Origin: an uncultured virus (IMG/VR IMGVR_UViG_3300024243_000011)
Taxonomy: Duplodnaviria; Heunggongvirae; Uroviricota; Caudoviricetes
Virus record (IMG/VR): IMGVR_UViG_3300024243_000011
Coordinates: 1-64,000 of that record
Length of the DNA: 64,000 nucleotides
Strand: one strand, 5' to 3'
Shown: in pieces, positions 17,572 to 28,186 of the stretch
Layout: each line of letters begins with the position of its first letter
Numbering within the stretch: position 1 is the first letter of the stretch
Position numbers and translations under genes: made by a program
Notes under the pieces: model-generated
Databases searched by the model: none
Told to the model about the DNA's origin: nothing
Seen by the model: the letters and a program-made list of their open reading frames with translations, nothing else

Positions 17572-17925
17572 ATGAACAACAAGCCAACAATGAAAGAATA
17601 TTCTGATGGGACAAAAGAATGGTGGTTGAATGGAGCGTTGCACAGAGAGGATGGTCCGGCTGGAGAATATCCTAGTGGATCAAAACGTTGGTATTTAAAT
17701 GGGCTTCTATATCGAGAAGATGGCCCTGCTGTTGAATGGGCTAATGGAGAGAAATTTTGGTGGTTAAATAGTCAAGATTATGAATATACCAAAGGAAAGC
17801 TGCACAACAATAACTTCTTAACATCAGATCAATATACAGGGCCAATAATAATAATGGGGGGAAAGAATAAAATAAGGTTCATGAAGGCAACAAACAATAA
17901 ACATTATGTTATTAAAGGCTATTAA
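17572..17925 (+). CDS. HRxDGPA beta-hairpin repeat protein, copy 1
   Basis: repeats W(W/Y)LNG.LHREDGPA.E..G; conserved tail KGKLHNNNFL.SDQYTGP.IIMGG. Confidence 0.8.
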   Translation: MNNKPTMKEYSDGTKEWWLNGALHREDGPAGEYPSGSKRWYLNGLLYREDGPAVEWANGEKFWWLNSQDYEYTKGKLHNNNFLTSDQYTGPIIIMGGKNKIRFMKATNNKHYVIKGY

Positions 17926-18156: not shown

Positions 18157-19293
18157 ATTCAAGAAGTTTATGCATTTTAAAATAATTAAAATGATGAATG
18201 GATATTGTAATTGACTTGTTATATCTTGGCACAAGCCTGCCAATATTAACAGGATATAGATAATTTAAAACCTTGTGTGGAAAATAAATAATAACAAGAT
18301 CAGTATTGTTGCCACAAGAACAAACAATTGCAGGTCCAATATATAAACAATCAACACAGGCGTTGTTCGAATGATATATGTTAAGCAAATGCCTGTTAAT
18401 CCATATGTTGTGTTTGTTGGTCAATCCAAAACCTCAATACATCCTTCAGATATTAAATAATCTAACTCAAGACCATTATAATAACCAAGTATGTCAGAAG
18501 ATTGAACACGATTGTTAACTTTAATGTTAATCTTATAAGTAAAAGAAATGTAATAATCTGTTGAGCCAAACCTTGTTGTTGGCTTTATAATACAAGGACC
18601 AATATAATTATAATAGAAGTTTGGAGGACTCGAACCCTCGATATGTTTATGAATCCATATTTTCCTTAATTTGTTCATGATTTATATATCCTTTCTAATT
18701 GTAAACCCTTATTCATATGAGATAAAAAATAATAATCAAACATAACTGATTGCACCTTTAGATACCAAATTAATAAATAATTCATTGTTAATAACAGCAA
18801 CATTATCCTTACAAAGAATACCAATTGCAGGAGGATAATTAATAACGTTTATCTTTTTAGGAAATAAAATATTATGATAATCAAAATTATATTTCCTTAT
18901 CCTTAATATTGCTGGGCCAATATAATCATAATAATAGTTTAGATTTGTACTTATGATATGTTTATGAATCCATATGTTTTTTAGTTTGTTCATGTGATCC
19001 TTTTATTCATATGAGATAAAAAATAATAATCAAACATAACTAATATAACCTTCAGATAACAATCTTTCTAATTGTACATGTTCAAATGGTTGACCAAATT
19101 TAATATTATATTTATAATATATGCTTTTACTATTGTTGAATTTTGTTAATGTTACCTTTCTAGGAAATATAATATTATAATAACCAGAATCAAATCGGCT
19201 TGTTGTCAATAAAGCAAAACCAATGTATTTATAATGATAATCTACATGATATGCAGTAGGCATTGTAATATTCTTATGAATCCATATAACCAT
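18149..19293 (-). CDS. four tandem paralogs (18149-18424, 18421-18678, 18736-18993, 19030-19293)
   Basis: all IWI(H/N)..Y.YIG(P/F)(A/C)..F(P/T).K; two end in G.ISYV. Confidence 0.7.
18709..19041. repeat. 39-bp perfect direct repeat (18709-18747 and 19003-19041)
   Basis: ttattcatatgagataaaaaataataatcaaacataact occurs twice, spanning the paralog stop codons. Confidence 0.9.
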
Positions 19294-19443
19294 TTTTTTT
19301 ATATCCTTTTTAATTGTGTATTATTGTTAATAACTTGTGAGTTATATAATTAATTGTTATGTAAAATAATAATTGTCAGTTTAATAGGCTTGATTGATGA
19401 TTGCTTAAAGGGGGGTATAAATTTGACAACAATAACCAACAAA

Positions 19444-19463
19444 TTCTCCACAAGTTTTCCACA
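19444..19463 (+). promoter_or_regulatory. tandem DnaA-box-like 9-mers
   Basis: TTCTCCACA-ag-TTTTCCACA vs consensus TTWTNCACA. Confidence 0.4.
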
Positions 19464-19636
19464 ATCAAATAACAATAAACTTACAATAAACAACAAATAC
19501 AATAATAACAATAAAACCAACAATCAGCAATATTTTTAACAAACCTTTTATCAACCGTATATATTGGCACGGTTATTGATTAGGTTTATTTTATCAAGCA
19601 TATGTCAAAGAGCTTATTTATTCTTTTGACTTCTAA

Positions 19637-19960
19637 CTACATTATAGCACAAGATGGTGTATTTGTTAACCTATTTGGGGGATTTATTTTATATAAAATG
19701 CTTTTTTTGCAAACTGAGAAGGCTTCGTATTTACTTATGAGAGCAAGGGAATTTATGGTATATGCAGTGCATGAGAAGTTTTTTAAGCTAAAAAATGTTC
19801 TTAAGCTAGGGTTTTCTGTTATTATTGCCAACCCCATATAGATTAATTTATTTTTTTTGATCTCATGATTATTTTCATGTTCAAAGTAAGCTATGACATG
19901 TTCATATACTTTAACCCAAACTATGTCACCTTTTTTATATTTTGGTTTGCTGTTATTCAT
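19637..19960 (-). CDS. small paralog-family protein
   Basis: KPKYKKGDIVWVK..YMGLAII; 3' end overlaps promoter element. Confidence 0.65.
   Translation of the reverse strand: MNNSKPKYKKGDIVWVKVYEHVIAYFEHENNHEIKKNKLIYMGLAIITENPSLRTFFSLKNFSCTAYTINSLALISKYEAFSVCKKSILYKINPPNRLTNTPSCAIM
19641..19671 (-). promoter_or_regulatory. GGTTAACA-N17-TATAAT promoter element
   Basis: minus strand ggttaaca aatacaccatcttgtgc tataat. Confidence 0.8.
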
Positions 19961-20310
19961 TGTTCCTTAATTACCAAGTATGTATTGTTTGTTGTTTTCA
20001 TGAATCTTATTTTATTTTTCCCCCCCATTATTATTATTGGCCCTGTATATTGATCTGATATCAGGAAGTTATTATTGTGCAGTTTTCCTTTGATGTGACT
20101 ATAATGTTGATCATTGAGAAACCATTCTTTATATCCATCAAAACAATCATATGCAGGACCATTTTCACGATGACGTTCTCCACTTAGATACCATATTTTT
20201 GTTCCGTTGGAATGTTCAATAGCAGGCCCATCAGTTCGATGACACTCTCCATTTAGATACCATCGTTTTGATCCATCAGGATATTCTTTCATTATTGGCT
20301 TGTTGCTCAT
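19957..20310 (-). CDS. HRxDGPA repeat protein, copy 2
   Basis: HRTDGPA/HRENGPA repeats plus conserved tail. Confidence 0.8.
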   Translation of the reverse strand: MSNKPIMKEYPDGSKRWYLNGECHRTDGPAIEHSNGTKIWYLSGERHRENGPAYDCFDGYKEWFLNDQHYSHIKGKLHNNNFLISDQYTGPIIIMGGKNKIRFMKTTNNTYLVIKEQ

Positions 20311-20598: not shown

Positions 20599-21237
20599 TT
20601 ACGGGCTTATATGGTAAGCGGAAGAGAAGGTTGAGACAGGAAAGTGTACACAACTAGTTGTTGGTGTTAATCCTGGCCAAATTACTTTATAATAAATTGG
20701 TTTAGATTTTTTATAAATATAGCCAATAACAATTATTGGTCCAACATAGTTTTTATGGGTAATCCACACAACATTATTTATTTTATATTCTGGTTTCATA
20801 TAGTTATTTTATGTCACAAAACAAATAATGTTTATGCATAGGCAAGTGTACATATCTAATTGATGATTTTAATCCTGGCCAAGTTAGTTTATAGTATTGC
20901 AGTTCTATATCTTGATCATCAAAATATGGTTTGTGTGTGGTATAGCCAACAATAATAGCTAGTCCTTTATATGGTGGGTATTGATCATAGTTAATCCATA
21001 TTACATCTCCAGGTTTATATTCTAGTTTTGGTTTCATGTAGTTACTTCTCCTTTTATATGGTGGTTGCCTATGCACCAACAATCTGAATCCATTGTTTTT
21101 ATATCATAAGCGCCATATGGTAAAACATTTGTTATTATTGCAATACCATAATATTTATATCTAATTGGATTTATTGGTGATTGAACATGTATCCATATGG
21201 CATCACCTATTTTATATTTTGGTTTGTTGTTATTCAT
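20599..21237 (-). CDS. three tandem small paralogs (20599-20799, 20804-21082, 21034-21237)
   Basis: YKINNVVWI..YVGPIIV; YKPGDVIWI..YKGLAII; YKIGDAIWI..YYGIAII. Confidence 0.65.
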
Positions 21238-21656
21238 TGTTCCTCAATTACCAAATATTTATTGTTTATTGTTCTCATGAACTTTATTTTATTTTTTCCT
21301 CCCATTATTATTACTGGACCTGTATACTGATCTGATACTAAGAAATTGTTGTTGTGCAGCTTCCCTTTGATATGATAATAAAGTATGTCATTTAGATACC
21401 ATACAAATGTTCCATCAGAATATTCAACAGCAGGACCATCTTCTCTATGATGGTTCCCATTTAGATACCATGATTTTGTTCCATCAGGATATTCAACAGC
21501 AGGACCATCAATTCGATGATGCTTTCCATTTAACCACCATTCTTTATGGCCATTAGAATCTTCAACAGCAGGGCCATCAGTTCGATGAAAATAGCCATTT
21601 AGGTGCCATGATTTTGTTCCATTAGGATGTTCTGTCATTATTGGCTTGTTGCTCAT
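21234..21656 (-). CDS. HRxDGPA repeat protein, copy 3 (three repeats)
   Basis: HRTDGPA, HRIDGPA, HREDGPA plus conserved tail. Confidence 0.8.
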   Translation of the reverse strand: MSNKPIMTEHPNGTKSWHLNGYFHRTDGPAVEDSNGHKEWWLNGKHHRIDGPAVEYPDGTKSWYLNGNHHREDGPAVEYSDGTFVWYLNDILYYHIKGKLHNNNFLVSDQYTGPVIIMGGKNKIKFMRTINNKYLVIEEQ

Positions 21657-22327: not shown

Positions 22328-22678
22328 ATGATTATTAATGGAAAAGAGTATCCAACAGTGTACCCAACTAAGGAAGATGTTGTTTATAATTATAAGGTGG
22401 GTGACATTATTTATTTTAAGGTATTAAATGACAGTATTTATATTGAAGTGGTTAACCTTGTTAATGATAAGATATTATCTCCTGGCAGAAGAATTAGTAG
22501 AGAAGGAGATTTTTATGTTTTAGATTCTCCTCGTTGTCTCATAGGTATAATTGATTTTTGTGATTATGTTAATGAATGTGATTATTATTATCCTGTTTAC
22601 ACTGTTGTTACGCTTAATGATAAGCAATCAATCAATGTTTCAGAATTAGAGATTGTAGAAAGGGTTGAGGCTTCATGA
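22328..22678 (+). CDS. small paralog-family protein
   Basis: YKVGDIIYFK..IGII..VSELEI. Confidence 0.55.
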   Translation: MIINGKEYPTVYPTKEDVVYNYKVGDIIYFKVLNDSIYIEVVNLVNDKILSPGRRISREGDFYVLDSPRCLIGIIDFCDYVNECDYYYPVYTVVTLNDKQSINVSELEIVERVEAS

Positions 22679-23061
22679 ACAACAAGCCAACAATGACAGA
22701 ACATTCTAATGGAACAAAACATTGGCTTTTAAATGAAAAACTTCATCGAGAAGATGGTCCTGCAATAGTTCGGCCTAATGGAACAAAGGCATGGTATCTA
22801 AATGGAAAACGTCATCGAGAAGATGGGCCTGCTATTGAAAGTCTATATAAAAGAAAAGAATGGTGGTTGAATGGAAAGTGTTATTGTGATATTATCAAAG
22901 GAAAGTTGCATAACAACAATTTCCTGGTATCAGATCGATATATAGGACTAGTAATAATAATGGGGGGAAAAGAAAGAGTAAGGTTCATGAAGACAACAAA
23001 CAACAAATATTTTGTAATTGAGGAAAATAATACTTCAGAAGTGGTTAACAAACAGGGTTGA
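22675..23061 (+). CDS. HRxDGPA repeat protein, copy 4
   Basis: two HREDGPA repeats plus conserved tail; C-terminus SEVVNK read through the promoter repeat. Confidence 0.8.
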   Translation: MNNKPTMTEHSNGTKHWLLNEKLHREDGPAIVRPNGTKAWYLNGKRHREDGPAIESLYKRKEWWLNGKCYCDIIKGKLHNNNFLVSDRYIGLVIIMGGKERVRFMKTTNNKYFVIEENNTSEVVNKQG

Positions 23062-23073
23062 TTGTGTTATAGT
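23043..23073 (+). promoter_or_regulatory. GGTTAACA-N17 promoter element (P1 of non-coding locus)
   Basis: ggttaaca aacagggttgattgtgt tatagt. Confidence 0.8.
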
Positions 23074-23161
23074 GGTTTCAGAGATTGACAGAAAGAGAGT
23101 TCTTTGACAATAAGGGGGGAAAGAAAAAGAGACAAAAAAAATAAAATTAATTTCAAAAAGT

Positions 23162-23192
23162 GGTTAACAGAATGGTCAAAGTGTGTTATAGT
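23162..23192 (+). promoter_or_regulatory. GGTTAACA-N17 promoter element (P2 of non-coding locus)
   Basis: ggttaaca gaatggtcaaagtgtgt tatagt. Confidence 0.8.
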
Positions 23193-23353
23193 GGTTTTGT
23201 TGATAACGGAGGCCGTCGCTCATTGATAATTTAAAAACGTTAATAATAAAACAAAGAAGGAGGGATATTTATTTTGATTGTTTAAAATTTTATTATAAAG
23301 ACTTGACAGACTTGGTATTAGCATTATATTAAACAGAAGGGAAACATTAGATG

Positions 23354-23608
23354 AATAGAATTCGAGATCAGACTTAAAAGGTAAATTATATTTAAATTTA
23401 ATTAGATGTTTGATTTGATTGTTAGTTGTTTGATAATAAAATATATAAATAATAATTTAAAATAAAAGGTTAAAACATAATGATTAATAATAGAATTCGA
23501 GATGGCCCTTGACAATAAATAAACCGAAAGTTTGATTATATAAAATTTAGCATGGAGAAAATAAATTAATGAGTAATATTAGAATTAGAGATGTGCCTTG
23601 ACAATAAA
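23354..23608 (+). repeat. three AGAATT(C/A)GAGAT repeats (23354, 23489, 23578), two extended by ccttgacaataaa
   Basis: aatagaattcgagat x2 and attagaattagagat. Confidence 0.8.
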
Positions 23609-23611
23609 ATA

Positions 23612-23834
23612 AAAGTTCTTGGTTGGCTGTAATAGTAAAGTGAGCATGTGTTCATGACACCAACAAGAAGATCCTCTATGTGTTGTTCATTGTTAATGTA
23701 TTATTGTCACTGTTTTTCTGAAAATTTAGGGGAGTTTTTAGAAGTGACAAAAGTGATGTCAATAGCTTTCCTCCTTTCGTTATTGACATCTAGTTCTTAT
23801 CAGGGGCCAACGTTCATTGTTGGCCCTTTTTTTT
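23612..23834 (+). ncRNA. candidate structured small RNA with anti-Shine-Dalgarno loop
   Basis: consecutive hairpins ttcttggttgg/ccaacaagaa, ttgtcact/agtgacaa, gatgtcaata/tattgacatc (loop tttcctcctttc), then an intrinsic terminator; 5' end uncertain. Confidence 0.55.
23804..23834 (+). terminator. Rho-independent terminator
   Basis: gggccaac-gttcatt-gttggccc followed by T8. Confidence 0.9.
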
Positions 23835-23870
23835 ATAAGGGAGATAAAAATAAAATTAATCTTCAAAAAT

Positions 23871-23901
23871 GGTTAACAAGCAGAGTTGTTTATGATATAG
23901 T
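23871..23901 (+). promoter_or_regulatory. GGTTAACA-N17 promoter element
   Basis: ggttaaca agcagagttgtttatga tatagt. Confidence 0.8.
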
Positions 23902-23938
23902 GTGGTTATGTTCAGTTGATAACAACAAAAGGGAGGTC

Positions 23939-24088
23939 ATGATGATTGGAAAGGAAGTAAGGGCAATTGTGGGTTCTTCATTTACTTCTTATCGATCTGT
24001 GATGGTTGATCGTGCAACGAAGGGAAAGGTCAAACTAACCTTCCAGTATGTGAGTACGTTTGGCAAGGATAAAAGGGGAGAGGAATAA
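23939..24088 (+). CDS. 49-aa hypothetical protein (own promoter cassette)
   Basis: gggagg RBS then ATG 23939; ends in 45-bp repeat. Confidence 0.55.
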   Translation: MMIGKEVRAIVGSSFTSYRSVMVDRATKGKVKLTFQYVSTFGKDKRGEE

Positions 24089-25718: not shown

Positions 25719-25736
25719 ACAACAAGCAGTTCTTTG

Positions 25737-25763
25737 GGGGGCGCAATGCCCCCTTACTTATTT
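25737..25763 (+). terminator. probable intrinsic terminator
   Basis: gggggc-gcaat-gccccc followed by T-rich tract after the ATPase gene. Confidence 0.6.
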
Positions 25764-28126: not shown

Positions 28127-28186
28127 ATGATTGCAAGTCAGGGATAAGTACTTGACAATAAAAGAAAGGGGGGGGAAAAAAAGAAA

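Follow-up and report, generated by a model that had tools for sequence, protein, structure and literature searches.

Positions 23043-23836 of the DNA analysed here may encode a non-coding early RNA with an exposed anti-Shine-Dalgarno (anti-SD) loop, which would pair with purine-rich Shine-Dalgarno (SD) leaders; early genes of the phage itself are the most plausible source of such leaders. The DNA is a stretch of 64,000 nucleotides (the window), the first 64 kb of the 76-kb IMG/VR virus record IMGVR_UViG_3300024243_000011, which belongs to an uncultured marine phage. We hold this reading tentatively, at a probability of about 0.4, and regard the locus as a credible but unproven base-pairing RNA; the analysis shows its signals, computed fold, strand bias and complementarity to leaders, whereas its transcription, stability, pairing in vivo and any effect on translation are inferred. 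A sequence-only reading of the window had described the locus as rrn-leader-like and as an undescribed system, possibly for host shut-off. The gene-free unit, its early promoters, the plus-strand structure, the anti-SD loop predicted to be open and the rare terminator were all supported by the analysis, whereas host shut-off, the likeness to rrn leaders and the claim of an undescribed system were not.

A gene-free unit between early promoters and a terminator

No credible gene was found from 23062 to 23941, that is, between the stop codon of a 128-aa gene at 23061 and the ATG at 23942, in agreement with the roughly 800 bp without a protein gene that had been noticed earlier. The stretch is entered through copies of an early promoter. 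When up to 3 mismatches are allowed, the window contains 23 copies of the promoter word GGTTAACA-N14-TGNTATAGT; the mean in shuffled sequences is 1.25, and 0 of 100 shuffles reach 23. Most of the copies carry an A-rich upstream element, many have GTTGAYAAC just after the -10 box, and they diverge from a point near 21.7 kb; such a divergent family fits an early region that is read by the host polymerase, and the dyad in promoter spacer and leader word could be an operator.

The two promoter elements that had been seen 119 bp apart, P1 (23043-23073) and P2 (23162-23192), proved to be exact copies of this 23-member family, with 0 mismatches to the promoter word, and belong to a repeat family (D1). 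P1 overlaps the last codons of the 128-aa gene, which is MORN-like, and is without the A-rich upstream element. Because the P1 leader aligns with the 3′ end of this adjoining upstream gene (TGGT.TCAGA ... AATAA.GGGGGGAAA.GAAA..GAG), the P1-P2 pair looks like a 119-bp tandem duplication. The leader word GTTGAYAAC, present in the P2 leader, stands behind at least 7 of the 22 early promoters listed. The SD-like GGAGG of the P2 leader is followed by no ATG or GTG start; what comes after it is ATT or a TTG frame of 3 codons. A 3-codon frame TTG ATT GTT TAA (23274-85; feature 23257..23285, plus strand) follows the SD-like word AAGGAGGG.

A third promoter, P3, lies within a cluster of TTGACA words, of which the locus holds 7 (23085-23788) where 0.82 would be expected, making it the densest 792 bp of the window, and three TTGATAA are found in addition. 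The cluster includes the repeat ends CCTTGACAATAAA and copies in both arms of the last hairpin, H3, while TGACA occurs in both arms of H2; among the TTGACA copies of the cluster only P3 has a matching -10 box. At its other end the unit closes with a stem-loop and T8 that have the form by which intrinsic terminators are defined, a G+C-rich stem-loop followed by a U run, and the strong terminator that had been claimed is thereby supported. Counted by our own criteria, it is one of 2 canonical terminators in the window and one of 4 in ~145 kb of the phage. The other canonical terminator of the window (25736-25756) stands directly after the gene for a MoxR-like ATPase, and intrinsic terminators are otherwise almost absent from the phage.

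Structure of the 3′ domain

Folding of 23600-23840 gave three consecutive hairpins (H1, H2 and H3) and the terminator, all of which had been described before, with a minimum free energy (MFE) of -68.3 kcal/mol (z -4.66; 0 of 200 shuffles as good). This 3′ domain ranks 1st among 533 overlapping 240-nt plus-strand windows, with a G+C-adjusted z of -3.4 against -2.43 for the next, and the other long early leader, on the minus strand at 19285-19634, is unstructured (z 0.00). H3 is the only hairpin of at least 9 pairs with a CCUCC-type loop in ~145 kb of the phage. Both in the 3′ domain alone and in a transcript of P3 length, its stem is predicted to form with a probability of 1.0 and its loop to be unpaired with a mean probability of 1.0, and the display of an anti-SD sequence that had been proposed is thus upheld by prediction. 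The apical region of H2 holds an SD-like word, GGGGAG. The H2 stem (23713-23727) also contains the palindrome TTTTTCTGAAAATT, which we take to be close to the CodY-box consensus and probably a chance occurrence in AT-rich DNA.

The plus strand is favoured by the G·U pairs, the folding energies and the U run of the terminator. Its MFE structure contains 60 Watson-Crick and 11 G·U pairs, and the sole 1x1 mismatch is A·A, with no A·C mismatch of the kind that would become G·U on the other strand. The minus strand folds 14.5 kcal/mol more weakly and ranks third to fourth, and the terminator has its U run on the plus strand only. We read the hairpin region as a non-coding RNA of the plus strand.

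Predicted partners of the H3 loop

The loop and 3′ arm of H3 are predicted to pair with the 22 early leaders at a mean of -15.6 kcal/mol, against -11.9 for 55 other start regions (Mann-Whitney p 2.5e-4) and -10.1 for 300 random 60-mers. Part of the pairing with early leaders comes from the leader word GUUGAYAAC, which can pair with the H3 3′ arm GUUAUUGAC by way of wobble pairs. The full 11-nt loop complement, with G·U allowed, has seven matches in the window; those on the plus strand occur at three places only, all in leaders directly behind early promoters (Table 1), and by our own reckoning the chance of this placement is ~0.005 if sites fall at random among ~127 start regions.

One of the three lies in the leader of P1, whose purine tract AAGGGGGGAAAG (23112-23123) is complementary to the H3 loop and is predicted to form 12 contiguous bp with C23766-U23777. 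After the cost of opening both partners, the cofold gain for the P1 leader with H3 is -8.8 kcal/mol, compared with -4.3 for the leader of gene 28187, -3.5 for that of the MORN-like gene at 21656 and -2.2 for that of the gene at 23942. According to the folding predictions, the promoter used determines the state of H3: in contrast to the P3 transcript, stem probability and mean loop-unpaired probability are 0.28 and 0.68 in the P2 transcript and 0.0 and 0.09 in the P1 transcript, and in the predicted 757-nt P1 transcript CCUCC itself is unpaired with a probability of 0.0. The predicted MFE structure of the P2 transcript has its 5′ end GUUGAUAACGGAGG paired to CUUUCGUUAUUGAC in the H3 region. The G-run SD leaders at 23112 and 28165 are also complementary to a second pyrimidine tract, ACCCCCCUUU (19405-19415, minus strand), which lies in the ~340-nt leader behind the minus-strand promoter 19671.

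In the mechanism that we propose, host RNA polymerase would start at P1, P2 or P3 and stop at the terminator, giving RNAs of ~0.5 to 0.76 kb, all three of which would share the 3′ domain of three hairpins. The 12-nt pyrimidine loop of H3 would nucleate pairing with purine-rich SD leaders and block 30S binding, as the CU-rich loops of Gram-positive small RNAs (sRNAs) do. The likeliest targets would be those early messages of the phage whose purine SDs are extended, from genes 21808 and 28187, early protein synthesis being damped or timed in this way, and host messages with strong SDs would also be hit. In an RNA started at P1 the gene-less leader would mask the loop in cis, and the choice of promoter could set the amount of active RNA. 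A more elaborate version of the mechanism, a promoter-choice riboregulator, strikes us as improbable: RNAs from P2 and P3 would expose the loop and silence 21808 and 28187 (possibly host messages as well), the decoy AAGGGGGGAAAG of P1 would mask it, and the whole would work as a protein-free timer of the early-to-middle transition, with a boxA-like word in P1 transcripts that could let polymerase read through the terminator.

Table 1. Coordinates of the locus, its repeat units and related sites in the window
Feature	Position	Strand	Description
P1	23016..23073	+	-35 TTAACA 23045-50, TG-extended -10 TATAGT 23068-73
P1 leader	23074..23134	+	no open reading frame behind; two TTGACA words, boxA-like word, purine tract
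P2	23135..23192	+	early promoter copy with A-rich upstream element
P2 leader, GUUGAUAACGGAGG...AUUGAUAA	23199..23232	+	GTTGAYAAC word and SD-like GGAGG
SD-like word AAGGAGGG	23257-64	+	strongest SD-like word of the locus; read from sequence
P3	23303-23330	+	sigma-70-like promoter, TTGACA-16-TATATT; 11/12 match in generic promoter scan
U1-U3	23351..23601	+	three degenerate repeat units, one mini-frame each; repeats, sequence
U1	23351-23377	+	mini-frame MNRIRDQT
U2	23480-23512	+	mini-frame MINNRIRDGP
U3	23569-23601	+	mini-frame MSNIRIRDVP
H1	23616-23669	+	bulged hairpin, inner hairpin with two G·U pairs; folding
H2	23700-23754	+	long hairpin; outer stem UUGUCACU/AGUGACAA, 11-bp inner stem with three G·U pairs
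H3	23755-23790	+	12-bp stem (one G·U), 12-nt loop UUUCCUCCUUUC at 23767-23778; anti-SD display
Intrinsic terminator	23802..23836	+	stem-loop 23802-23828: 11 pairs, 6 G-C, loop of 5, then T8
Loop complement	21789	+	SD of gene 21808
Loop complement	23112	+	gene-less leader of P1
Loop complement	28165-28178	+	SD of gene 28187
Early promoter copies, examples	5520, 16955, 17523, 21752, 23871, 24112, 28096, 33132	+	word matches
Early promoter copies, examples	19671, 20365, 21711	-	word matches

Coding potential and repeat units

The sole long frame between 23061 and 23942 is 23648..24088 (plus strand, 146 codons), which has no stop across H1-H3, the terminator or the promoter that follows and continues in frame into a 48-aa gene; in the hairpin stretch, the other two plus-strand frames are interrupted by 5 to 7 stops. 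Its codon score over the 62 codons up to the terminator is -11.2, below every in-frame 62-codon window of the training genes (mean +31.8, minimum -0.57; off-frame windows, mean -45.5), and the open frame is probably due to chance. On the minus strand, a 28-codon TTG frame scores -8.3 (-0.30 per codon); the test is weak for short early genes, three real-looking small genes of the minus strand reaching only -0.12 to +0.11 per codon.

Upstream of the hairpins lie the degenerate repeat units U1, U2 and U3, with mini-frames of 8, 10 and 10 codons, respectively. U2 and U3, which both end in CCTTGACAATAAA, form an 89-bp duplication with 88% identity, and U1 is a weaker copy. Two other readings of the locus were considered and rejected. 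A tblastn search of all open reading frames of at least 40 aa against it, made with pseudogene remnants in mind, returned promoter-derived matches only, and a replication origin with transcriptional activation was discarded on the finding that other parts of the window are richer in AT than the AT-rich core of the locus (21% G+C).

Phage, neighbourhood and relatives

Another assembly with an identical ATPase is 216,854 bp long and a 92.7-kb record of the same phage has a completeness rating of 45%; the phage is therefore ~210 kb in size. It has a G+C content of ~30% and encodes a polymerase of the DnaE type as well as a MoxR-like ATPase and the VWA partner of this ATPase. The identity of its proteins to any others found does not exceed about 30 to 39%. 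GGAGG-type SDs are used throughout its genes; of the 127 called starts, 55 pair with a generic anti-SD probe at -8 kcal/mol or more strongly. The window contains no tRNAs, and G6 runs are not enriched in it. From 21.8 kb onward, every gene in the neighbourhood lies on the plus strand.

Around the locus, four paralogous small proteins (17572-17925; 19957-20310, minus strand; 21234-21656, minus strand; and 22675-23061) contain repeats of the YLNG..HR.DGPA type, which are MORN-like by eye, no Pfam family scoring above its cut-off. Next to them is another family of small proteins, which start with KYK.GD.IW, and both families stand behind early promoters. A stretch of 686 bp (window 18488-19173) is absent from another assembly (G001), which is otherwise 100% identical, with 0 single-nucleotide polymorphisms (SNPs) in 24 kb; this indel sits inside a tandem array of minus-strand paralogues of 85 to 87 aa.

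Searches for relatives of the locus led back to the same phage. The exact 36-nt H3 pattern was found in viral_contigs in this phage only, and the repeat-unit pattern in the same contig only. A degenerate pattern of loop plus 3′ arm retrieved 9 loci from metagenome_contigs, of which one was the same phage (100%) and 8 were unrelated G+C-rich or coding sequences. As single-protein queries, the ATPase and DnaE gave no relative or the same phage only; against a set of 5.8 billion proteins the ATPase found itself and then a next best match of 39% identity, and the 80 loci around its distant relatives show no early promoter and no comparable hairpin. In the INPHARED phage collection there was no DNA match, and protein hits were all below 60% identity (24-31% for the best hits listed).

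Weighing the interpretations

A number of observations speak against a pairing RNA. The early leaders may simply carry the strongest or longest purine SDs, which would explain the pairing bias without targeting, and the phage's own genes rely on the same SD type, with the consequence that a general anti-SD RNA would harm the phage too. Long-range pairings cannot be predicted reliably at RNA lengths of 640 to 760 nt, and the predictions take no account of co-transcriptional folding. The P2 leader was rejected as a unique partner of H3, its -23.8 kcal/mol being equalled or beaten by at least 15 of 7,995 40-nt windows. It is the cluster of hairpins that exceeds chance, and the single pieces do not: the 9-mer CCTCCTTTC occurs once in the window and at least once in 39 of 100 shuffles, and hairpins of at least 11 pairs number 10 on the plus strand against 3 to 20 in 20 shuffles. 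The 24 public runs listed with the same DNA, all labelled as seawater or marine metagenomes, include no RNA run, and no transcript has been observed. Conservation gives no help, as the only other copies of the locus are identical assemblies of the same phage: in three, alignments of 1,524 or 1,701 nt (1.5 to 1.7 kb of the locus) have 100% identity, and two of these assemblies are free of SNPs (0 in 24 kb). Rfam 15, searched with the whole window, yielded 0 matches at gathering thresholds; with E values up to 10 at 22900-24000, the best alignments, DapZ (26.6 bits, cut-off 56), VrrA (24.7, cut-off 50) and suhB (22.4, cut-off 41), all fall on the terminator. Finally, early modules have been duplicated and deleted in this neighbourhood, and the hairpins and orphan leaders could be debris.

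This last point can be developed into an explanation of the whole locus, which we consider possible but rather unlikely: recombination would have left behind pieces of repeated early modules, of which only the terminator is functional, halting early transcription before the next module, and the anti-SD loop would be a product of chance or the mirror image of an old SD. The P1/P2 pair at 119 bp within a repeat family, the likeness of the P1 leader to the 3′ end of the upstream gene, the 88% duplication of U2 and U3 with its weaker copy U1, and the 686-bp indel in a paralogue array next to DNA with 0 SNPs all agree with such a history, and a motif and single hairpins of this size do arise by chance. 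By eye, the terminator and H3 on the minus strand even resemble a promoter-leader-SD module; however, the best alignment score for such an inverted module was reached by 0.206 of 500 shuffles. Further, 23330-23840 has no significant DNA similarity elsewhere in G000/G001 (best E-value 0.0097 over 27 nt), and the region is the most structured stretch of the window, with 11 G·U pairs that all favour the plus strand, which would be unexpected for random inverted duplications. The host shut-off proposed earlier, in which a very abundant RNA would mask host AGGAGG sites or mimic the 16S rRNA 3′ tail and titrate its binder, draws on three consecutive promoters that could give high output and on 9 nt that the loop shares with a tail of the B. 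subtilis type, 5′-GAUCACCUCCUUUCU-3′ (PMC5732282). The match is real for this type of tail, but the phage's genes use GGAGG-type SDs throughout with no feature that would spare them, the full-length plus-strand loop complements of the window are three early leaders of the phage itself, and one loop per RNA of 0.5 to 0.76 kb would be a costly way of titrating all host messages. We regard shut-off as quite improbable.

The remaining interpretations invoke translation. That the three mini-frames MNRIRDQT, MINNRIRDGP and MSNIRIRDVP are leader peptides or micropeptides, to whose translation the hairpins respond, appears very improbable to us, even though all 3 units retain an ATG, a stop in the same frame and, 9 to 12 nt upstream, a purine word, one of the 4 codons in which U2 differs from U3 has changed silently (CGA to AGA), U2 and U3 score +6.0 and +4.7 in frame and negatively in the other two frames, and the U3 stop is 15 nt before H1. 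Ten codons carry no statistical weight, and the conservation extends past the stop (CCTTGACAATAAA), as in a nucleotide motif. An antiterminator pairing between the 3′ arm of H1 and the 5′ arm of the terminator is impossible because both carry CCAAC, and the downstream gene has its own promoter. A small gene on the minus strand, the 28-codon TTG frame (23762 down to 23676), is in our view highly improbable; its SD would be the loop complement GAAAGGAGG, 7 nt before the TTG, and the minus strand of H1 with UUUUAUUUUAUU would end its message. SD and spacing are perfect, SD words normally lie on coding strands, and a U-rich run does follow the minus strand of H1, yet the promoter scan shows no minus-strand promoter-like site between 23790 and 23900, the codon score is negative, the start codon lies within the 12-bp stem, and the frame is too short for homology tools; the neighbouring genes and the G·U pairs, moreover, point to the plus strand. 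If an anti-SD RNA acting on early leaders, which we continue to prefer, is real, a giant marine phage would be timing its early gene expression cheaply, by means of an RNA; if the locus is debris, it illustrates how orphan promoters, and hairpins that mimic regulatory RNAs, arise from repeated promoter modules.

Comparison with known systems

To our knowledge, few phage-encoded regulatory RNAs have a known mechanism, and no case of a phage RNA acting through an anti-SD loop on the phage's own early leaders was found in the open-access literature. Hairpin loops that are CU-rich and block SDs are a known kind of regulator among the sRNAs of Gram-positive bacteria, including RNAIII, RsaE and RoxS, and to call the locus an undescribed system was an overstatement. 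Its description as rrn-leader-like rested on the tandem promoters and on a boxA-like word in the P1 leader. These are indeed features that it has in common with rrn leaders, but the tandem promoters look like a recent duplication and no rRNA lies downstream, which sets the locus apart from an rrn-type leader with boxA. The word itself, UUCUUUGACAAU (23100-23111), has the core UCUUUGA in common with the boxA-like consensus of B. subtilis and matches 9 of 12 positions of the E. coli boxA consensus (PMC2724277, PMC13753749). The core is not enriched in the window (12 matches, 10.25 expected). A second boxA-like word, GCUCUUUGACA (19601-19611, minus strand), lies in the leader of the minus-strand promoter 19671; both words are in early leaders that open long gene-free stretches, and by a rough count two hits in ~1.3 kb of leaders exceed the density over the whole window.

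Three systems come closer in their way of working. LhrC of Listeria is an sRNA of ~100 nt with three redundant CU-rich sites (PMC4132741). The locus resembles sRNAs of the LhrC type in having a CU-rich hairpin loop, which in those sRNAs pairs with the SD region of target mRNAs and blocks their translation, and an intrinsic terminator at its end, but it is phage-encoded, has no Rfam hit and offers one loop at the end of a predicted RNA of 0.5 to 0.76 kb instead of several redundant single-stranded sites in a short sRNA. The cuckoo RNAs of Alphaproteobacteria consist of 2 to 4 adjacent hairpins, each carrying CCUCCUCCC (PMC4615179). Adjacent hairpins with variable stems and an anti-SD-like loop are present here too, whereas the pyrimidine loop is found in only one of the three hairpins (H3), is a different word (UUUCCUCCUUUC) and again has no Rfam hit, which places the locus outside the cuckoo RNAs. 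In the icaR mRNA of Staphylococcus aureus, an anti-SD word in the 3′ untranslated region pairs, in cis or in trans, with the 5′ untranslated region of icaR, and RNase III cleaves the duplex (PMC3868564). The predicted pairing of the P1 leader with H3 would likewise join an anti-SD word near the 3′ end to an SD-like 5′ leader; unlike icaR, which is an mRNA whose own translation is regulated, the locus has no open reading frame between the pairing partners. Altogether, the predicted single-stranded anti-SD word and the complementary SD targets are what a base-pairing anti-SD regulator would bring together, and the locus would thus be akin to these RNAs in its manner of working, not by membership in any one of their families.

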